Below are positions 2,327-32,206 of a DNA stretch of 32,206 nt, one piece after another. The notes below the pieces were generated by a model. The model saw only the letters and a list, made by a program, of their open reading frames with translations. It was not told the origin of the DNA and made no database searches. This stretch comes from Galeopterus variegatus. Its lineage: Eukaryota. The stretch is taken from contig NW_007726576.1 of the NCBI RefSeq assembly GCF_000696425.1, forward strand, positions 620,165 to 652,370, read 5' to 3'. How positions within the stretch are numbered: the stretch's first letter is position 1; each line of letters starts with the position of its first letter. The position numbers and the translations under genes are program-made.

Positions 2327-3310
2327 ATGTTTATTTTATTTTTAAGAATCTCTTATCCCAGGGCTAGTACTTGGCCTTCAAACCACTTGCTGACTTGAGG
2401 CGGCTCAGGAGCTCCTCATCCATCTCCTTCATTGTCATAACGAGAAATACATCCAGAGGCTGCACCGCTGGCTCCGGCAGAGGCTGGCTGGACGCTAGTC
2501 AAAGCTGTTTTCTTCTCCTGGTGCAGAGCTGAAGGTACGTTTGCCAGCCCCGTGCACCTCAGTGGGCTATGTGACTAGCTCCTGGCACATTTCCTCTCTT
2601 CCTCTTGTCTACCAGGTCAGTGATGCCAGGGTAATATTCTCCTTCTTCCCTTTCACCAGGTTAATTTTAAAACACTGAAGACAGTAGAGCCACAGTGTGG
2701 AAGGAGCAGGGTCTCTAAATGACTACCTGAAATAGAACTTTCTTGCTGACCAATATTTTACTGTGATATGGGCATAAAAGTAATCTTCAATTGTGCTAAA
2801 CTACTGAGATTCTAGTTTTTTTCTTTTTAACACCAGTTAGTGCTAATAAATTTGCACAGATAATATCCTAATTAGTGGTAAAGATATGACTGGAAACCAG
2901 TCTCCTACTTCCTTTGATGTTAACAAGTATAGTTCCATTCATATAGAACTTTCATAATTTAACGGACCATGCCTATGAGTGAATGGGAAAATAGTAACTT
3001 ACCTAGAGATCGAATGCCTTTTTGTTCAAGAAAGCTGTGTAAAACATTTGTATTAAGGTTTAATATAAAGCCCAGTTCTGGTGTAAGTTTCCAGAAGCCA
3101 TCCTGTGAAATTAAGAAAACAAATTTGTCACACTATTGAATTTCACCATCTAAGAAATTATGTGATATAAATAAAAGCTCTTCATAAGCTAGTGTCACAG
3201 TACTGCTTAGAATCTCGTAAATACTATGATCCCTATGTATCTGGTGGCATTCATAAAAAGTCTAGAAAGAGGCTTGTGTGTAGTGATTTTACAAAAATGG
3301 TACTATACAT

Positions 3311-3544
3311 TTTTTTTTCTTTTTCCTTTTTGTCTTTTTTACTGAACGGCAACAGATCGCAACCCTCAGTGTCGCGCCCGTACCGGACCGGGACCGGCAA
3401 CGGGATCGCAACCCTCGGTGTTGCACCTGCACCACGCTCAGCCAGTGAGTGGGAACTGGTCTCCACATGGGATCCGAACCCTCGGCGGGAGTGCCGCCAT
3501 GCTCCCACGCGGCGCACTCTCCAGTGCACCACTGGGCCAGCCCT
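3311..3544 (-). mobile_element. tRNA-derived SINE, family A (full length)
   Basis: Poly-T/CT tail at 3311-3350, then the reverse complement of the roughly 235-bp composite unit, ending ...cagtgcaccactgggccagccc. Probable TSD tacattttttt. Confidence 0.8.
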
Positions 3545-4790: not shown

Positions 4791-4837
4791 AACTTGCTAC
4801 TTTACTAAACTATTTTACATCAAAACAAATCATTACA

Positions 4838-5086
4838 GGGCCGGCCCGGTGGCGCACTGCTACAGTGCACCGCTTGGGAGCACGGTGGCACTCCCACCGA
4901 GGGTTCGGATCCCACATACAGACCGGTTCCCGCTCACTGGCTGAGCAAGGTGTGGGCGCAGCACTGAGGGTTGCGATCCCGTGGCCGGTCCCGGTCCGGT
5001 ACGGGCGCGACACTGAGGGTTGCGATCCGTTGCCGGACACGAAAAAAGACAAAAAGGAAAAGAAAACAAACAAACAAACAAAAAAA
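4838..5086 (+). mobile_element. tRNA-derived SINE, family A (full length, trimer-like composite)
   Basis: gggccggcccggtggcgcactgctacagtgcaccgcttgggagc...ggttcggatcccacatacagaccggttcccgctcactggctgag...gagggttgcgatcccgtggccggtcccggtccggtac...gagggttgcgatccgttgccggacacg, followed by an A-rich tail with (caaa)n. Perfect TSD atcattacag (4828-4837 and 5087-5096). Confidence 0.85.
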
Positions 5087-5550: not shown

Positions 5551-6615
5551 TTATGTGATCAGCCCGTTTGAATAGCACTGTTCTAAATTATGAAGCTCAC
5601 TAAGCACAGATTTAAGGGAAAGTAAGACAAATACCTCAGTTTGTAGATGGAAGAGCTCGGTCCAAGGCACAAGATTCCTCTGGCTCTCTTTGCAGACCAC
5701 ATCATCCTCAGCTTCCTGTGCCTGAACGCTTGCAGCAAAGTCACCTGTATGCTGGTGTCTCATCACTTTCTGTTGTATAAGACACTTGTACGCTGGTGTC
5801 TCACCACTGTCTCTTTCACAAGAGCTTTCATGACTTGGGGCCCACAAATCTTGGAGAGAATCTGGTGATGCAGTTTCGGCAGAAGTACTCAGAAGGGAAG
5901 AAGCCTGTGACTGACAGTGAGCAAGCGGAGGCAAGTCTACAGGCGGCTTGTAACTGGTGCTTGAAGTGGCTAGGAAGCTTTGCAAATGAAAAGGAGAGGA
6001 ACCAGAGGGAAGACAAAAACCTGAACCAGTGCTAAGAACTCTAGAAGGAGAGGAAAAATCTGGCTGGGAGAGAAAGACCTGCCTATGGGAGGCGTGAGCA
6101 TGTGGGCTGATCTGACAGTCTTGAGAAGGTTCAGGTGGATCTGACTGCTGGAAGCCCAAAAAGCCACCTGAAAAAGCACCGCCAGTGAGGGATCCAAAAG
6201 CTGGGTTCTGGGGAGGCAATGGGGAAGGAGATGTCGACCCACAGAGAATGCCAGGCCAACCGCCAGTCCAAAGGCCTTGGCCACGACGAGATAGGCCTAA
6301 CAGCTTGGGACGAGCCAGAGAACCACAAAGAAATCTCTGCGGAGGTAAGCGGGGAGAAGGGCAGGCAGTGCCAGGTAAGTGGGGAGGAGGGGGGGCACCT
6401 GCGCGGGGGGTTGGGGCAGCCAGGAAAGAGGGTACGCCAGAGGCTGCAGCAGCAGAAAGAAAGTTAGATACAGTCGTTGTCCGTGAAATACGTCTCATCA
6501 ACGATGTTTGTTTAAACAACTCCCTCTGACTTAAACCCAGTGGCTTTCCCACACCTTTACATTCAGAATTGGGTGTGGGAGGTTGGACTGCTGATTGCGA
6601 ATCAAAGCGAGCCAC
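5551..6615 (-). CDS. 354-aa ORF, Ser/Pro/Leu/Phe-rich and low-complexity. Candidate exon or compositional artefact; product unknown.
   Basis: Uninterrupted ATG-to-TAA frame of 1065 nt. It lies on the pyrimidine-rich strand of a purine-rich block. Third codon positions are T-rich rather than GC3-biased. I recognise no domain. No polyadenylation signal lies downstream. Confidence 0.25.
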   Translation of the reverse strand: MARFDSQSAVQPPTPNSECKGVGKPLGLSQRELFKQTSLMRRISRTTTVSNFLSAAAASGVPSFLAAPTPRAGAPPPPHLPGTACPSPRLPPQRFLCGSLARPKLLGLSRRGQGLWTGGWPGILCGSTSPSPLPPQNPAFGSLTGGAFSGGFLGFQQSDPPEPSQDCQISPHAHASHRQVFLSQPDFSSPSRVLSTGSGFCLPSGSSPFHLQSFLATSSTSYKPPVDLPPLAHCQSQASSLLSTSAETASPDSLQDLWAPSHESSCERDSGETPAYKCLIQQKVMRHQHTGDFAASVQAQEAEDDVVCKESQRNLVPWTELFHLQTEVFVLLSLKSVLSELHNLEQCYSNGLIT

Positions 6616-8107
6616 TTCACCATCTTCAGCAACTTCCAGCTCAGGTGACCTAACTCTTCTTCCAGTCAGACTTTTCTCTTTTTTTCTTTTTCTCTTAACA
6701 TGTTGCGATTCTTCATTCCGTTCAGAGGATGCTGAAAGAGGCTGCCCAGGAGAGAGAATTATTCATGTTGGGGGAAACCCAGAATAAAATGAACAGTCAA
6801 GAAAACATCTTTCTAGTAGCCGACTTGCCAGCAGTGAAGCAACTGCTCAACCTAGAGCACGATTCCCAGAATCAGGATCGTCAACACGGGCAGGGACACA
6901 GAAAACACCACTGGAGATAACTGAAGACCATTTAAGTACGAGGCCCTCCTTTGGTAGCTGCGGAAGCTGGAGAGCATACCAGCAATTGGTAAATTGAAAG
7001 GTCTTTCTGTTTTCATTCTTAGGGCCACGAAATTTTAAACACCCCTCATTTTACACATGAGAAAACCAAGGACCACAGAAACAACATGCTTAAAATTTTA
7101 CAATGAATAGTACCATAGTGTGTAAAACCGCTTTAAAATAAACTAATAATTTGAAGTACATTATTCCATTCTTCTACACTGCTTTTCAGCAATACTAAGA
7201 AATTGAGAAAATATTTAGAAATCTTCAAAAGCTTCAAAGTAACCAAATGAATATATCTTTACATCAGAATGTGAACAATATGTAAAACAAAAGGGAAAGA
7301 GGGGATGCTGTTACTGCTATTATTTGAATTTAAATGTGAAGAGTGCACCTTAAAAAGTTGCTAGTGAACCAAATCCAGTTTTATATGGATGACAAGTTTC
7401 CGAGATATTTTGGAAATACAGTTAGTCCCCCTTTATCCAAGACCCCCACTGGATGCCTGAAATCATGGATAGCCTGAACCCTACACATACAATATTAAGA
7501 AAATAAACGTTTCTGTTGCAATTTTTTTTCCCTAATTCATCATTGTCTTTGGATTTTATTTCTTGTATGTCTAAATCTCTTTCAGCTTTTGGAAATACCA
7601 TCCAAAGACCTCCTTGGTGTTAGCCTTTCAGTGCAGTTGTGGTTCACTGATGCCTTGCCTCATTGCACAAGAGGACAGAAGATGCTGGTTGTGCATTTTC
7701 ATTCACCCTGTCTTGTCGCTACCGTCATTCTATGGCAGCGACAGCTTCCCTTCTATCAATAAGAGGATGTGACCAGGACATCAGCCCAGACAAGGAGAGG
7801 AAGCATGGTTTTCTGAAGTTATCATCCCCACTCCCTGCCCTTTCTTTACAGACAACTACAAAATAAAACAAAAATACTGCACAAAGGGTTGAGGAAACAC
7901 ATTTTCTGTTTCTTTCTCTTTTTTCTATACCATCTCAAAACACACCAAACATGATTTTATGAACAAATGATATGTGCTTTTTTAAATCAACTAACATAGT
8001 CACTTTAAAAAAGGATCAAAGAAAATGAGTATTTCACACATTTATTTTTCCCCAAATTTCCCTACCCACAAACGTTTTTCCCTTAGAATTCTAAATTCTT
8101 TTTTTAG

Positions 8108-23648: not shown

Positions 23649-23879
23649 TTTTTTTTTTGTCTTTTGTCTTTTTCCGTGTCCGGCAACGGATCGCAACCCT
23701 CAGTGTTGCCCCCGTACCGGACCGAGGACCGGCAACGGGATCGCAACCCCCGGCGCTGCTCCCGCGCCTCGCTCAGCCAGTGAGTGGGAATCGGTCCGTA
23801 TGTGGGATCCGAACCCTCGGGCGGGAGCGCCACCGCGCTTCCCAAGCGGCGCACTATCCAGTGCGCCACCGGGCCGGCC
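23649..23879 (-). mobile_element. tRNA-derived SINE, family A (full length)
   Basis: Poly-T of 17 nt, then the reverse complement of the A unit. TSD ttgcagaattttt (23636-23648 and 23880-23892). Confidence 0.85.
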
Positions 23880-23910: not shown

Positions 23911-24103
23911 GGCCGGCCTGTGGCTCACTTGGTAGAGTGCGGTGCTGATAACACCAAGGCCACGGGTTCGGATCCCATATAGGGATGGCTGGTTTGCTCA
24001 CTGGTTGAGCGTGGTGCTGACAACACCAAGCCAAGGATTGAGATCCCCTTATCGGTCATCTTTTACAAACAAAAACAAAAACAAAACAAAACAAAACAAA
24101 ACA
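23911..24103 (+). mobile_element. tRNA-derived SINE, family C (dimeric), with (AAAAC)n tail
   Basis: ggccggcctgtggctcacttggtagagtgcggtgctgataacaccaaggccacgggttcggatcccatatagggatggctggtttgctcactggttgagcgtggtgctgacaacaccaagccaaggattgagatcccctta, then (aaaac)n at 24065-24103. Confidence 0.75.
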
Positions 24104-25032: not shown

Positions 25033-25157
25033 GGGCTGGCTGATTAGCTTAGTTGGTTAGAGTGTGGTGTTAGACCACCACCAAGGTCAAGGGTTTAGAT
25101 CCCTGCAGTGGCCAGCACCAAAAAATAAAGAAAAAGAAAGAAAGAAAAGAAAAAAGA
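25033..25157 (+). mobile_element. tRNA-derived SINE, family B, with (AAAG)n-like tail
   Basis: ggggctggctgattagcttagttggttagagtgtggtgttagaccaccaccaaggtcaagggtttagatccctgcagtggccagcacc, followed by aaaaaataaagaaaaagaaagaaagaaaag. Confidence 0.7.
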
Positions 25158-26188
25158 GCTTTTAAGAAATCAGGCACTGGCAGGAGCACGGAGACCTCAC
25201 AAGCTAAGGGCAGCCCCAGCTGACAGACGGCAAGCGTGTTGGGTGCCATTGAGTGGATGGCCCACTGCTACTATAGACATTGCCACCATGCAGGGGAGTC
25301 TGTCACAGCCACCACCACTGCAGGGGCAGAGTTCTGCCACTCCTGCCACAAAGGCAGCTCACTGCCACAGCAGCAGCCACTGTCACCATCCAGGCAGCTA
25401 ACTGACCACTTGACTGCATTGACACAAAGAGGGTTACCAGTATAGCTCAGGGAAAGAGCTGAGTGATTGCAGATCTGTGTGACCAGTGGCCCATCCCAGA
25501 GGAGGAATTACACTGACACTCCATGGTAGCACACCCGGGGATGGGAGGTACATGCACAGCCCACATGACTGCCTTGATCCACGCAGAGACATGCACGAAC
25601 ACCCAGAGTGTGTAGAAACCCAGGATACCCCAAAAGAGTAAGAGACAAAGATCCCAATCACCACCAACCCATCCCCCAGCTGGGGAAGCAAAGACCCAGG
25701 AGGAGCCTCTTCCTGTAAGAAAGAGGAAAGAGAAACCCTGGTCAGGGTCACCCATTCAAACTAAGGAGCTCTAGTATACCCTAGTGCACCCATCAGGGTC
25801 AGGGGACACTAGCTGGGTGCCAACAAGCCTGCCCAGGGTCACCTGCCCCAACCAAAGAGTGACAGGGCACCCAGGTGCTTCTCCCAAGAATTTGAGAGCT
25901 CACCCATGTACTTGACAACCTAACACAGTGTCACTAACCTCGACAAGGAATCACTAAGTGCCCTAGTACTTAAGCCATTGAGGCACTCACATGCAATTCT
26001 AACGCTGAATATAGCTGAAGTACCCACACAGAGACTACACTACTGCATCTACCCAGAACCAATATTAAAACACCCTACTCAACCGTCAATATGAAACACA
26101 CCTAGGAGGAAGTCTCTCTCCTCAAAGCCCACTCTGGAGTAAAAAAAGAAGCACCTGCTCTACAAGATGACCAGACATCAATGCAGAG

Positions 26189-26587
26189 ATGCTAGAAATA
26201 CAAAAAAAAAAAAAAAAAAAAAAAAACCAAGAAAATATGACACCACCAAAGGAATACAAAAATTCTCAAGTACCAGACCCCACAGAGCAGGAAACCCTTG
26301 AAATGACTGAAAAAGAATTCCAAGCAACAATCTTAAGGAAACTCAATGAGACACAAGAAGACTCAGTTAGACAACACAATGAACTCAGAACAAGTATCCA
26401 GAATATGAAGGAGGAAACTTACAAACAGATTAATATCTTAAAAAAGAATGTAGCAGAACTCCTGGAACTAAAGGTCTCATTCAACAAAACAAAAAACACA
26501 AGGGAGAGTATAAGCAGCAGGTTAGAGCAAGCAGAAGAAAGAACTGAGAAGGGTGGGACACTAGTAAGTCCACCAACATATGTGTAA
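26189..26587 (+). pseudogene. L1 ORF1p remnant (coiled-coil region), containing an expanded A-tract and truncated
   Basis: MLEIQKKKKKKKNQENMTPPKEYKNSQVPDPTEQETLEMTEKEFQATILRKLNETQEDSVRQHNELRTSIQNMKEETYKQINILKKNVAELLELK is the typical L1 ORF1p N-terminal and coiled-coil sequence. Confidence 0.7.
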
Positions 26588-26648
26588 TAGTAGTATCAAA
26601 AGGAGAGGAGAGAGAAGAGACCAAAAAACATTCCAAGAAAGAGTGGTT

Positions 26649-26801
26649 CGCGCCGGCGTGTGGCTCACTCGGTAGAGTGCGGTGCTGATAACACCAAGGC
26701 CACAGGTTCGGATCCCATATAGGGATGGCCGGTTCGCTCACTGGCTGAGCGTGGTGCTGACAACACCAAGTCGAGGGTTAAGATCCCTTTACCGGTCATC
26801 T

Positions 26802-26825
<24 letters not shown>
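26649..26825 (+). mobile_element. tRNA-derived SINE, family C (dimeric), inserted into ORF1 of L1 #1
   Basis: gcgccggcgtgtggctcactcggtagagtgcggtgctgataacaccaaggccacaggttcggatcccatatagggatggccggttcgctcactggctgagcgtggtgctgacaacaccaagtcgagggttaagatcccttta, followed by a22. Confidence 0.8.
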
Positions 26826-26832
<7 letters not shown>

Positions 26833-27633
26833 GAACTTCTGATCTTCGGGACAAACTTCTTGAAATAACTCAGGCACACACAAAAAAAAGAAAATGAAAA
26901 AAGAATTTTTTAAAAAAAGAAAAAAATCTGAGAGCTAGCAGACAACCTTAAGCACACAAAAATCCAAATCATGGCTGTTCCAGAAGGGGAAGAGAAAGGT
27001 AAAGGCATTAAAAACATATATTCAATGAAATAATACTGGAAAACTTCCTAGGTGTAGGGAGAGACATGAACCTTCAGATCCAGAGGGCTCAAAGAACCCC
27101 AAACAGACTCAATTTGAAAAGGTCCTCTCTGAGACACATTATAGTCAGACTGGCAAAACTCAAAGTCATAGACAATCCTAAGAGAGAAAAGTGTTAAGTC
27201 ACCTAAAAGGAGTCTCCATCAGACTAACAGCAGACTTCACAACAGAAACTCTACAGGACAGAAGAGATTGGGATGATATATTTAAAATACTAAAATAAAA
27301 AAGCTGCCAGCCAAGAATACTAGACCCAGCAAGGCTATCCTTTGGAAATGAAGGAGAAATAGTATATTTCTCATACAAAAACTGCAGGAGTTCACCACAA
27401 GACGAGCCCTACAATAAATCCTTAAAAGACTGCTGAATCTGGAATGCAAAAAATTACAATCACTACCATGAATACACAAGAAAGAACAAAACCCATTGGT
27501 GGAATAAAAATGCAAACAAGAAAGAGAAAGAAACTATATCTTACCACGTCAAAAAACCAATTAATGACAAAGACAATAAAAGGGAAAGAAAGGAACAAAA
27601 GATATTTAAAACATCCAAACAGAAATCAATAAA

Positions 27634-28303
27634 ATGCCAGGACTAAGAAAATATCTTTCAGTAACAACCCTAAATGTAAATGGATTAAATTCCCTACTCA
27701 GAAAACATGAACTGACTGACTGGATTAAAAAGCTAGACCCAACTGTATGCTATCTACTAGACTCCCCTCACCTGTAAAGACACACACAGACTGATAATGA
27801 ACAGACAGAAAAAGATGCACCATGAAAATGGAAACCAAAAGTGAACAAGAGTAGCTATTCTCACATTGGCTAAAATAGACTTTAAATCAAAAACTGTAAA
27901 AATAGACAAAGAAGGCCAATATATAATGATAAAGAGACCTATACAGTAAGAAGACATAACAATCATAAATATATATATGCACTCAACACTGGAACACCCA
28001 GACATATAAAGCAAACACTATTAGAACTAAGGAAAGAGCTAAATCTCAATACAATAATAGTTGGGGACCTGACCACCCCTCTCTCAGCATTGGACAGGTC
28101 ATGTAGGGAACAAATCAATAGAGAAACACACGATTTAAACTTTCCTTTGACCAACTGGACCTAACAGCTATCTACAGAACATTTCATTCAACAACTACAG
28201 AATATACACTCTTCTCACCAGCACATGGAATATTCTCTAGGATAGACCACATGTTAGGTCACAAATCAAGTCTCAACAAATTTTTAAAAATTAAAATCAT
28301 TTC
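27634..28303 (+). pseudogene. L1 ORF2 endonuclease-domain remnant (N-terminal about 220 codons, multiple stops)
   Basis: Start motif MPGLRKYLSVTTLNVNGLNS. Downstream ..IIVGDLTTPLSALDRSCREQINRETHDLN..IDHMLGHK.., which are typical L1 EN motifs. Confidence 0.65.
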
Positions 28304-28305
28304 AG

Positions 28306-30057
28306 GTTCTGGTCAAGATGGAGGAATAGATAGTACCCAGCATCACTCTCTCCCAGAAGTCAAACAATTCACAAATATATAAAAAAGCAACAAAAGCCAA
28401 GCTGGGGCTGCTAGAGCTCAGGGGAAGAGGAGGAGAGACCTACGGAGTACATGAAGGTGGGAGAAGCCATGATGAAATTAAAAACTGCTCTGACCATTTT
28501 GTGCTGCAGCCGCTTTAAGGCTGGAACTGCTGAGCACACAGAGCAGGAGCTGGCAAAAGCTGCAGCTGTGCCCTTTGGATGGAGTTGCTTGGAGGCAGCA
28601 GGGAAGAAGAGGGCCTTGGTGGCACCAGCAAGACCACTAATGGGGTTCCCATGGACCCACATAGGAGGGAGGAGCCACAACAACTGAAGGAATGGAGCCA
28701 CTCAGAGGCCAGTGAGTTATCGCAAGGGACTGGTGCACAGCCCAGCCCATGGGAAATGTTTGCAGCACAGGCAGTGGGAGAGATGGGCCCTCTGGGGGAA
28801 CACTGGGGCACAGCAAGAACAGCTGATCTGCACCCCATTTAGCACAAGACCACTCAGAGGAGGGCCGGCCCGGTGGCGCACTGCTACAGTGCGCCGCTTG
28901 GGAGTGCGGTGGCGCTCCCGCCGAGGGTTCGGATCCCACATACAGACCGGTTCCCGCTCACTGGCTGAGCGAGGTGCGGGCGCAACACCGAGGGTTGCGA
29001 TCCCGTTGCCGGTCCGGGTCCGGTCCGGGCGGGACACTGAGGGTTGCGATCCGTTGCCGGACACGAAAAAAGACAAAAAGAAAAAAAAAAAAAAAAAAGA
29101 CCACTCAGAGGAGACTGGTCAGGAATATAGAATTACATGTGGTGCAGTTTGATGAAAAGACTGAAGCCCAGATCAGAGTTTCTACACAACCCAGGTGCAT
29201 CGAGTTTCTGGAGAGCTGGAAGTACCTATAAAGTCAAACATTATAACTTGTGCTGCACAAAAAGCCTTCCCTAGGGAAGCAGCAGCAAAGCAGCAATTTA
29301 GCTCAACCACAGAGCTCAAGTACTGGTCCCAGGAGGAAGTTCCCCCACTTCAGAATTAAGCAAAGGAAAAAACAATTAGTTTTAGCTCAGACACACTGCC
29401 AGTGCCTTGGGTCCGCCTGGGGACATGAGCCATGGAATTGGGGACTGGAGTCCCCTCCCAAAACTAGGCACACCATCAGCACCTCAGGGGCTACCAGCGG
29501 ACCCGAGGCAGAGAGTCAGGGACCAAACCCCCCTCCCATCAACCAGGCACACTGTGCCAGCACCAAGGAGCATGCCAAAAACATCACCTCCATGTGGGTG
29601 GCCCACCACAGCCACCACAATAACCATGGCTGCCGCAAAAGCGGCTAGATGGATGCCACAACCACCATGCAGATGGTCCGCCAGCCACTGGAGTATATTG
29701 ACACAGAGTTAGCAGCAGAGATAAAGAAAAGAAGATGTCTCTCTCCACAAAGCCCATTCCAGAGTGACAGAACCAGCATCTGCTCTATGATAATATTGGG
29801 GGACCTGATCACACCTCTCAGCAATGGACAGATCATCTAGGCAACAAATCAACAGAGTTACCATTATTCTTTCAGAAGGAGAGAAGAAATCAAGGGTAAT
29901 TAGAGGGGAGAGGAGGAAAGGACAGCAGGATGGGGTGACATTGGACAAGGGGCATAAAGAATAAGTAGGATTTGTAACAATATATATGCTAGTAATATTG
30001 ATTTGATCAACATATCTCAATGTTGAACCCCAGAAATATGTATAATCAAATTTGATT
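28306..30057 (+). mobile_element. Internally deleted LINE-1 (intact 5' terminus and 5'UTR joined to a short ORF2 fragment and a 3'-end-like segment), inserted in ORF2 of L1 #1
   Basis: Begins ggtcaagatggaggaatagatagtacccagcatcactctctccc, the same 5' terminus as L1 #2. Carries the ORF2 fragment IILGDLITPLSNGQII at 29785-29855. Flanked by a near-identical roughly 28-bp duplication caacaaatttttaaaaattaaaatcatttc (28275-28303 and 30058-30092). Confidence 0.5.
28863..29097 (+). mobile_element. tRNA-derived SINE, family A (full length), inserted in the 5'UTR of the deleted L1
   Basis: Full A unit with an A-rich tail ..gacaaaaagaaaaaaaaaaaaaaaaaa. Perfect 16-bp TSD agaccactcagaggag (28847-28862 and 29098-29113). 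Confidence 0.85.
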
Positions 30058-30139
30058 CAACAAAAATTTTTTTAAAAATTTAAAATCATTTCGAGTATCT
30101 TTTCAGGCCACAATGGATTAAAACTAGAAATCAAGGGAG
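30058..30139 (+). mobile_element. Resumption of L1 #1 ORF2 after the insert (..KIFLKI.NHFEYLFRPQWIKTRNQG)
   Basis: Continues the ORF2 sequence interrupted at 28303 (KFKKIEII..FS.HNG.KLEI motif). Confidence 0.5.
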
Positions 30140-30235
30140 ACTTCCGGTCAAGATGGCGGAATAGACAGTCCCTAGCATCACTCTCTCCCACAAATCAACC
30201 AATTTAAACTATAAAAACATGACATAAAGTGCATA

Positions 30236-30960
30236 CGGAACGGGGAGACGTCCAGCGGGGGAGGCAGAAGCTCCGCGGAGACCACATGTCCTGCGGGGCC
30301 GCCATCGCACGATCCGGCAGATAGGCTTCACCGCCGCCACCCAACTCCATTCCCAGCCTGGCCCAGTGCGCACAGAGTGGGGAGACGTCAAGCAGGGGAG
30401 GCAGAGGCTCGGCAGAAACCACACACCCTGTGGGGCCACGACTGTGTGATCCAGCAGGTAGGCTTCACTGCAGGCACCCAGCACCATTCCCAGCCTAGCC
30501 TAGTACACACGGAGCAGGGAGACTTCCCACAGGGGAAGCGGGAACTCCATGGGGACCACACCGCTGCAGTGCGATCCAGCAGCCCAGCCCAATGCGTATG
30601 GAGCACAGAGACATCCAGCAGGGGAGACAGAAGCTCATAGAGTACATACACCCTGTGGGGGGACCGCCACCGTGCGATGCAGCAGCAGGTAGGCTTCACC
30701 GCCGCCACCCAGCTCCATCCCAAGCCCGGCCTAGCGCCATGAAGCAGGGAGACATCCAGCAGGGGAATGGGAAGCTCCTCAGAGACCACACGTTCTGCGG
30801 TGCCTCTGCGCATCCCAGCAGCCCGGCCCAGAGCACATGGAACAGGGAGAAGTCCAGCACAAGAGGTGGAAGCTCAGCAGAGAACACACACCCTGCGATA
30901 CCACCCCGTGACCCAGCAGCCCAGCCAAGTCCGAACTAACCAGAGAGGTGGCTCCCCGGA
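30236..30960 (+). repeat. Tandem monomers (about 6 units, roughly 145 bp and roughly 90 bp variants) forming the L1 #2 5'UTR
   Basis: Repeated unit gggagac(g/a)tccagc(a/g)gggga(g/a)gcagaagctc..gagaccacac..ctg(c/t)gggg..cgc..gatccagcag..aggcttcaccgccgccacccagctccatcccagcc..gcgc... Unit starts at about 30240, 30381, 30528, 30609, 30749 and 30846. Confidence 0.7.
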
Positions 30961-31107
30961 GAGGCCCAACACCTGAAGCAACCACACACACAAGGCACTA
31001 ATGGCCAACAGAGCAGTCACTGAGGTAGGAATACCAAATTGGCAACCAGAGCAACATCTCAGTAAGTCAATAGTGTCAAACCTGTGGACTGTGAAACCCC
31101 TGCCACA

Positions 31108-31560
31108 ATGAATAAACATCAAAGAAAAGATAACAGAAATACAAAAAATCAAGAAAATACACCACCAAAGGGTAATAACTCTCAAGCTCTAGAACCCATA
31201 GAACAAGAAGCCCTTGAAATGACTGACAAGGAATTTTGAGTGACAATTCTAAGGAAACTGAATGAGATACAAGAAAACTCAACTAGACATGATGATGAAA
31301 CGAGGAAAAGTATACAGGACCTGAAAGAAGAAATGTACAAGGAAATCAATGCCCTGAAAAAAAATGTAGCAGAACTTGCCAAACTGAAGAAGTTATTCAG
31401 CGAAATAAAAAACACAACAGAGAGTTTAACCAGCAGCCTTGCAGAAGTTGAAGAGAGAACCTCTGAACTTGAAGATGGGCTGTTTGAAATAACACAAGCA
31501 GACAAAAAAAAAGAAAAAAAAAAGAAAAAAGAATCAAAGGCATTGAAGAAAATCTGAGAG
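31108..31560 (+). pseudogene. L1 #2 ORF1 remnant (in-frame TGA at about 31236; A-tract expansion at about 31500)
   Basis: ORF1p coiled-coil sequence as above. Track ORF 31240-31557. Confidence 0.65.
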
Positions 31561-31824
31561 AGATATCAGACAACTTTAAGCGCTCAAATATCCAAGTCAT
31601 GGGTATTACAGAAGGGGAGGAAAAAGGAGATTGCATTGAAAACATATTCAACAAAATAGTGGCAGAAAACTTCCCAGGTATAGGAAAAGTCACAGATCTT
31701 CAGATCCAGGAAGCTCAACAATCTCCAAACATATTCCACCCATAAAGGTCTTCTACAAGACCTGTTATAGTCAAATTGGCAAAACTCAAAAACAAAGAGA
31801 GAATCTTAAAAGCTACAAGAGAGT

Positions 31825-31986
31825 GGGCCGAGCCCGTGGCACACTCGGGAGAGTGCGACACTGGGAGCACAGTAGCGCTCCCGCCGCGGGTTCGGATCCT
31901 ACATGGGGATGACCGGTGCGCTCACAGTGCTCACTGGCTGAGGGCGGTGCAGCCGGTCTCAAAAAGGACAAAAAACAAAAAAAAAA
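31825..31986 (+). mobile_element. tRNA-derived SINE, family A' (short form), inserted in L1 #2 near the ORF1 C-terminus
   Basis: gggccgagcccgtggcacactcgggagagtgcgacactgggagcacagtagcgctcccgccgcgggttcggatcctacatggggatgaccggtgcgctcacagtgctcactggctgagggcggtgcagccggtctcaaaaaggacaaaaaacaaaaaaaaa. TSD aaagctacaaga (31813-31824 and 31984-31995). Confidence 0.8.
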
Positions 31987-32206
31987 GCTACAAGACAGAA
32001 GCATCAAATCATCTATATGTGAGTCCCAATCAGACTAACATCAGACTTTTCATCACAAACCCTAAAAGCCAGAAAGGAATGGGATGATATACTCAAAATA
32101 CTAAAAGACAGAGATTGTCAGCCAAGAATACTCTACCTCACAAGACTATCCTTCTGAAATGAAGGGCAAATAGTATATTTCTCAGATAAACAAAAACTGC
32201 AGGAGT

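Follow-up and report, generated by a model that had tools for sequence, protein, structure and literature searches.

A tandem array in the 5'UTR of a decayed L1 element

One L1 retrotransposon in the analysed window (the whole stretch of DNA, 32,206 nucleotides long) carries an array of tandem units inside its 5'UTR. The array, which occupies positions 30228–30942, consists of six head-to-tail units on the + strand, and the copy that contains it (L1 #2) is single and decayed. We consider it probable that this region is the 5'UTR of a full-length, long-dead L1 whose internal Pol II promoter was made of reiterated units. That such an array represents a family-wide L1 feature with promoter function is, from our analysis, plausible.

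Tandem Repeats Finder detected a 137-bp period over 30228–30536, and self-BLAST and a repeat search showed that the periodicity continues to ~30930, with spacings of 137, 137, 89, 141, and 98 bp between consecutive unit starts. The unit-start motif GGGAGACNTCCAGCAGGGGA, allowing up to 2 mismatches, was found five times, at 30243, 30380, 30517, 30606, and 30747, against 0 occurrences expected from dinucleotide shuffles; the start of the sixth unit, at 30845, is more diverged. Pairwise identity among the six units ranges from 70 to 78% (mean 74%), and all the alignment scores of unit pairs (18–75) are higher than the shuffle maximum of 10.9. Motif counts and pair scores, compared with those of shuffled sequences, thus rule out chance or low-complexity similarity among the units.

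Tandem Repeats Finder, self-BLAST, and motif counts therefore confirm the original prediction of about six head-to-tail units preceding the ORF1 of L1 #2, and the unit identities lie well above the 60% that it had set as the floor for true monomers. Several details required adjustment. The best placement of the array is 30228–30942 instead of 30236–30960, and the long units measure 137–141 bp, not ~145 bp; the short variants of ~90 bp are real (89–98 bp). Likewise, the two CpG-bearing strings quoted for the monomers do exist, but both occur in unit 1. The comparison that it proposed with the 5'UTR of another element in the window, L1 #1, revealed no unit-type tandem repeats there.

Unit structure and duplication history

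The array opens with a partial unit corresponding to the final 15 nt of a complete one (AGTGCATACGGAACG, 30228–30242, + strand). According to Tandem Repeats Finder and BLAST, it is in phase with the ends of the units; its match is weak when taken alone (equalled by 19 of 500 shuffles). It is followed, all on the + strand and delimited by motif and alignment, by the long unit 1 (30243–30379, 137 bp), the best preserved of all, the long unit 2 (30380–30516, 137 bp), the short unit 3 (30517–30605, 89 bp), the long unit 4 (30606–30746, 141 bp), and the short unit 5 (30747–30844, 98 bp). The short unit 6 (30845–30942, + strand, 98 bp), the most diverged one, was delimited by repeat search and alignment. 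Immediately downstream, the ~48 nt at 30943–30990 continue the register of the array and may represent a seventh unit, partial and degenerate; this match is weak, as it was equalled by 29 of 500 shuffles.

A MAFFT alignment showed that the short units 3, 5, and 6 correspond to long units minus one common segment of ~40 bp (GTAGGCTTCACCGCCGCCACCCAGCTCCATTC). The deletion boundaries are identical in all three, with CAGCAG on one side and CC(A/G)GCC on the other; unit 3 has in addition an extra gap of ~15 bp. Along the array, long (L) and short (S) units follow the order L L S L S S. This interspersion shows that units were duplicated in several rounds once the deletion had occurred, and hence points to a multi-step history and not to a single slippage event. 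A higher-order repeat of L-S dimers was also considered; it is unsupported beyond the alternation itself, as identities are uniform (70–78%) for all pairs of units.

It may be asked whether this growth took place in the L1 family or at this particular locus. In the second case, the family would have had one copy of the segment or none, and the six units would have arisen after insertion by minisatellite-like slippage or unequal exchange. We find this unlikely. A BLAST search detected no further occurrence of the unit sequence in the rest of the 32-kb window and, as far as the window goes, the array is indeed seen in this copy only, as a local expansion would predict. However, such an expansion would need at least five duplications together with a re-duplicated deletion, all of them shortly after insertion and strictly limited to the 5'UTR. 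Moreover, arrays encoded by the family are documented for the L1s of mouse, rat, horse, elephant, hyrax, and opossum (PMC5381506).

Candidate transcription-factor motifs recur along the array, which is expected because the units themselves are repeated. The RUNX-type core RACCACA, a bare consensus match, occupies a fixed unit position in four of the six units and in the partial seventh one, and a candidate ETS-like motif (GGCGGAAGC) appears in the CpG-restored consensus only (see below).

The L1 element around the array

Upstream of the array lies the 5' junction of L1 #2. A putative copy of the target site (AAAACTAGAAATCAA, 15 nt, 30120–30134, + strand), recognised from the sequence and preceded by TT at 30118–30119, sits within an older L1 ORF2 fragment in the same orientation. 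The L1 endonuclease prefers TT/AAAA, and the site upstream of L1 #2 fits this preference. The L1 5' terminus and a non-repeated leader of 93 nt, starting with GGGAGACTTCCGGTCAAGATGGCGGAATAG, follow at 30135–30227 (+ strand) and were identified by the sequence and the known L1 start consensus. The terminus at 30135 reads GGGAGACTTCCGGTCAAGATGGCGGA and a YY1-type box (CAAGATGGCGGA) lies at 30149–30160. This kind of box is found at the start of almost all mammalian L1s, with mouse and rat as the exceptions (PMC5381506). The leader shares 81–84% identity with the beginning of a different L1 5'UTR of the window, at 28307–28394 (BLAST).

This last similarity bears on a reading of the region as two elements, in which a monomer-bearing L1, 5'-truncated within a unit at 30228, would have inserted into a separate leader-type L1 beginning at 30135. 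The monomeric family would then be devoid of the YY1-type start, like those of mouse and rat, and the array would still be made of L1 monomers. Three observations would suit this reading besides the fact that the monomeric L1s of mouse and rat are precisely the exceptions without a YY1 start (PMC5381506): the leader resembles the start of an element without monomers (that at 28307), the array opens with a partial unit, and an A-rich sequence (AAAAACATGACATAA) lies just upstream of 30228. However, the A-rich stretch is a feature of the leader itself, as it recurs at 28370–28394, and an extra nested insertion would be required. In addition, the first 27 nt of L1 #2 resemble the first 27 nt of the unit (GGGAGAC.TCC...GGCGGAA). 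This resemblance of the element start to the unit start is marginal (3 of 300 shuffles reached the same score), but it fits a single 5'UTR whose parts evolved together. All in all, we see two elements as improbable, slightly more so than a local expansion, and retain, as the probable reading, a single element with its own leader.

Downstream, a non-repeated tether of ~165 nt (30943–31107, + strand) connects the array with ORF1 and shows no significant similarity to the unit consensus beyond the possible partial unit. Local alignment yielded no match of the tether with the unit consensus or with the 5'UTR of the element at 28307, and a single weak local match of 31 nt with the 5'UTR of L1 #1 (score of 15, for a shuffle maximum of 14). 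The complete 5'UTR of L1 #2 thus amounts to ~970 nt. A decayed L1 ORF1, recognised by its translation and its homologs, starts with an ATG at 31108 and runs off the window end (31108–32206, + strand). Its reconstructed product of 305 amino acids matches L1 ORF1 proteins with the domains PF02994 and PF17490, with E values down to 1.3e-57. The best matches are L1s of Glires (marmot, squirrel, and rabbit), at 40–45% identity; the only muroid matches, from Scotinomys, rank lower (40–42%). ORF1 is interrupted by a SINE (31821–31983), recognised in the sequence and by BLAST against other SINE copies and flanked by a duplication (AAAGCTACAAGA, at 31809–31820 and 31984–31995). As the window stops at 32206 inside ORF1, the 3' end of L1 #2 and the second copy of its target site lie beyond it.

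The units appear to be specific to L1 #2 within the window. Neither of the other two L1 5'UTRs (25160–26190 and 28307–29790) has unit-type tandem repeats, and the units show no significant similarity to either of them; a resemblance seen by eye, which could have suggested that the units derived from these 5'UTRs, was not significant on testing. The array had no match in Rfam, its translated ORF had 0 matches among 1.84 billion representative proteins (HMMER), and an antisense ORF of 141 amino acids running through it corresponds to no exact protein on record. A degenerate version of the unit motif retrieved 113 single 20-mer matches in JGI metagenome contigs, which we judged to be due to chance because BLAST with the whole 5'UTR found nothing longer than 22–23 nt there.

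This lack of similarity to the other L1 5'UTRs of the window, to Rfam families, and, upon translation, to proteins might be taken to mean that the array is foreign to L1, for example an unrelated satellite of high GC content or a different mobile element inserted between the start of the L1 and its ORF1. However, missing similarity is to be expected, since L1 5'UTRs share little or no homology between families (PMC5381506). Furthermore, the array is accompanied by no poly(A), flanking duplication, or terminal repeats, and both its edges grade into partial units. We consequently regard a foreign origin as very improbable and treat the array as part of the L1 5'UTR.

CpG content, decay, and age

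The array has 64% GC and a CpG observed/expected ratio (o/e) of 0.49; the ratio is 0.14–0.17 in the tether and ORF1. We reconstructed a CpG-restored unit consensus (GGGAGACGTCCAGCGGGGGAGGCGGAAGCTCCGCGGAGACCACACGCCCTGCGGGGCCGCCACCGCGCGATCCGGCAGGTAGGCTTCACCGCCGCCACCCAGCTCCATTCCCAGCCCGGCCCAGTGCGCACGGAGCA) by taking CG as the ancestral state wherever the units are split between CG and TG or CA. It contains 17 CpGs, with 75% GC and a CpG o/e of 0.85, over 143 alignment columns (~137 bp without an insertion unique to unit 4). Such a CpG-rich restored unit implies that the array was formerly a CpG island of ~700 bp. Relative to this consensus, changes are seen at 35% of the CpG-site positions; the divergence at non-CpG sites is 11% overall, unit 1 having the lowest value (5.8%) and unit 6 the highest (16%).

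Unit 1 stands apart in its preservation. It retains 13 CpGs (o/e 0.83), as compared with 2–7 in each of units 2–6, and only 15% of its CpG-site positions have changed, versus 33–47% in the others. Unit 1 has diverged least from the consensus and units 3 and 6 most, so that divergence rises from 5' to 3' only roughly and not monotonically. This pattern could be due to chance, gene conversion, or residual protection of the 5' edge against methylation.

The reading frame of ORF1 offers a second measure of decay. Four in-frame stops and one frameshift occur in its 305 codons, and in a substitution simulation this stop load was best fitted by a decay of ~12%, with a plausible range of 6–20%. The similarity between this value and the non-CpG divergence of the units (11%) suggests, as a rough estimate, that the units were probably near-identical at insertion, like those of young mouse arrays, and that most of their divergence is post-mortem. 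The same agreement between 11% and ~12% would be predicted by a local expansion if the units had arisen in a burst of duplication early after insertion.

Comparison with the L1 promoters of other mammals

The original prediction had presented monomeric promoters as classically murid, with most other mammalian L1 5'UTRs being non-repetitive. This view is outdated. Tandem motifs of 70–100 bp are duplicated in the L1 5'UTRs of rat and hyrax, triplicated in those of horse, elephant, and opossum, and present in many copies in mouse (PMC5381506), a distribution across mammals repeated in a later work (PMC9022269). The novelty claimed for a monomeric promoter in this lineage was consequently overstated: at least six units outside murids would be unusual, yet not a new kind of promoter. 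Mouse has the highest monomer number among vertebrates, and two monomers constitute its minimal promoter (PMC9022269). The distant monomers of the mouse Tf subfamily act as enhancers through repeated YY1 sites (PMC11602158), and it has been proposed that the duplication of monomers preserves promoters that 5' truncation would otherwise erode (PMC6454616).

The array shares several features with those of the mouse L1Md A, Tf, and Gf subfamilies: most of the 5'UTR is taken up by head-to-tail units that are rich in GC and contain CpGs, the array has a partial unit at its edge, and a non-repeated tether precedes ORF1. The unit number is also similar, six here and 5.7 and 7.5 in the cited mouse Tf insertions (PMC9022269). 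In contrast, the units are smaller (137–141 or 89–98 bp versus ~200 bp in mouse) and, unlike in mouse L1Md, belong to two interspersed length classes. Unlike in mouse and rat L1s, a YY1-box 5' terminus and a leader of 93 nt precede the array (PMC5381506). Unless this leader belongs to a separate element, L1 #2 does not start inside its monomers without a YY1-box terminus, as murine elements do. The unit length (137 versus ~200 bp), together with the best matches of ORF1, argues for an origin of these units independent of the murine monomers.

L1 #2 also resembles the L1s of horse, elephant, opossum, and hyrax, which likewise combine a YY1-box start with tandem duplication inside a CpG-island 5'UTR (Boissinot and Sookdeo 2016, PMC5381506). 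However, the motifs in these species and in rat are of 70–100 bp in 2–3 copies, as opposed to six units in L1 #2, which measure up to 141 bp and are accompanied by edge fragments; a count of six has so far been described only for mouse. In the literature searched, whose coverage was incomplete, we found no description of an L1 having both a YY1-box start and at least six units of this larger size.

The human L1PA/L1Hs elements are comparable in 5'UTR length (~900 nt in human, ~970 nt here) and have, like L1 #2, a YY1 box at the extreme 5' end, a CpG island, and a RUNX-type core motif; a functional RUNX3 site is present in human L1. However, the human 5'UTR is not made of tandem units.

A putative promoter of reiterated units

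L1 families replace their 5'UTR promoters repeatedly, and some lineages have taken up reiterated units. To our knowledge, mouse is the only well-studied case of an L1 with many units. It is possible, although we advance it only tentatively, that a non-murid L1 lineage independently evolved a mouse-like promoter of at least six monomers while keeping the ancestral YY1-box leader.

Under this model, the active progenitor would have had near-identical units forming a CpG island of ~700 bp, with ~17 CpGs per long unit. The reiterated units would have supplied repeated transcription-factor sites, as in mouse L1Md, so that promoter strength would scale with unit number, and would have provided redundancy against the 5' truncation that L1 undergoes whenever it retrotransposes. 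The YY1-type box in the leader would have fixed initiation at nucleotide 1, and thereby the promoter would have been copied along with the element. After insertion, the copy was presumably methylated and decayed, as seen in its CpG loss, the stops in ORF1, and the insertion of a SINE. The resemblance of the element start to the unit start and the RUNX-type core at a fixed unit position are both compatible with this model, although neither is proof of it.

The unit starts look like near-copies of the first 11 nt of L1 #2 itself (GGGAGACnTCC), so that copies 5'-truncated into the array could still expose a start-like sequence and stay transcribable. If true, truncation, the problem that monomers presumably overcome in mouse, would have been solved a second time and independently. 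A second many-unit L1 promoter, with a YY1 start, would offer a natural comparison with that of mouse, and could serve to ask how unit number relates to activity and whether arrays buffer 5' truncation or aid escape from host repressors. Being known from a single fossil copy, and given the tandem motifs already documented outside murids, the array of L1 #2 is a lead for a genome-wide survey and not a surprise.

Other features of the window

The window has a mammalian-type composition, with 43.5% GC, a CpG o/e of 0.35, and a high density of L1 and SINE sequences. Its long ORFs showed no Pfam domains and, therefore, no gene anchors the locus. An open frame of 354 amino acids at 5551–6615 (− strand) lies in a locally GC-richer stretch (51% GC; 6001–7000). 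Neither a Pfam domain nor an identical protein on record was found for it, and it probably arose by chance in non-coding DNA rich in GC.

Upstream of L1 #2, the region 25160–30134 contains nested L1s that all lie on the + strand. L1 #1 comprises a non-repetitive 5'UTR truncated at its 5' end, an ORF1 containing a SINE at ~26647–26826, and an ORF2 extending to ~28306, where a second L1 begins, at TT/AAAATCATTTCAG, and interrupts it. This second element (28307–29789) consists of a 5'UTR only and passes straight into an ORF2 fragment (29790–29857) that is 84% identical to 28054–28123. ORF2-like sequence resumes at ~30040–30134, where L1 #2 inserted at an ORF2 position ~40 nt beyond that of the first interruption. 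The sequence at 28262–28307 is repeated at 30046–30095, which may represent a long target-site duplication or a second ORF2 copy.

For the older L1 #1, the best match of the endonuclease domain (63%) lies on a metagenome contig, CAXVQW010051269.1 (GCA_964261755.1). This 22-kb contig has bacterial two-component and NACHT-like genes joined to a mammalian L1 ORF2, with no 5'UTR, that is 76% identical to L1 #1 at the nucleotide level; apparently, it is a chimeric assembly or a case of host contamination. The best named match of the domain was from Rhinolophus (56%), and those from pig, macaque, and horse reached 53–54%. Judging from these identities and from those of ORF1, the protein libraries searched evidently contain no L1s of the host itself.

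A young, CpG-rich SINE family is represented by at least seven copies in the 32 kb, with 87–92% identity: 1–80, 3310–3544 (−), 4814–5074, 11261–11498 (−), 12561–12825, 23644–23879 (−), and 28838–29098. Its consensus of ~205 bp plus an A-tail comprises three tRNA-like units, each with a GAGGGTT(C/G)(G/C)GATCC box; a SINE-derived peptide had 0 protein matches. The family resembles the colugo t-SINE/CYN family, built only of tRNA-Ile-related units, a tentative hint that the host may be a colugo. The copy at 28862–29098 is flanked by the duplication AGACCACTCAGAGGAG.

Older or different forms of tRNA-derived SINEs also occur: one with a single tRNA-Ile-like unit (25035–25115) and an A-rich tail to 25157, and one with two directly adjacent Rfam tRNA matches (23917–23984 and 23987–24058). 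The tRNA-like sequence at 10716–10790 (− strand) was predicted as tRNA-Val (GAC) by ARAGORN and scored 46.7 bits with the Rfam tRNA model, which exceeds the gathering score. It probably represents a unit of a SINE instead of a tRNA gene, since 10719–10868 aligns to the SINE family with 68% identity. The SINEs inserted in the two ORF1 sequences also count among the older or different forms: that of L1 #1 (26647–26826) is a two-unit copy and that of L1 #2 (31821–31983) is only 72–80% identical to the other copies.
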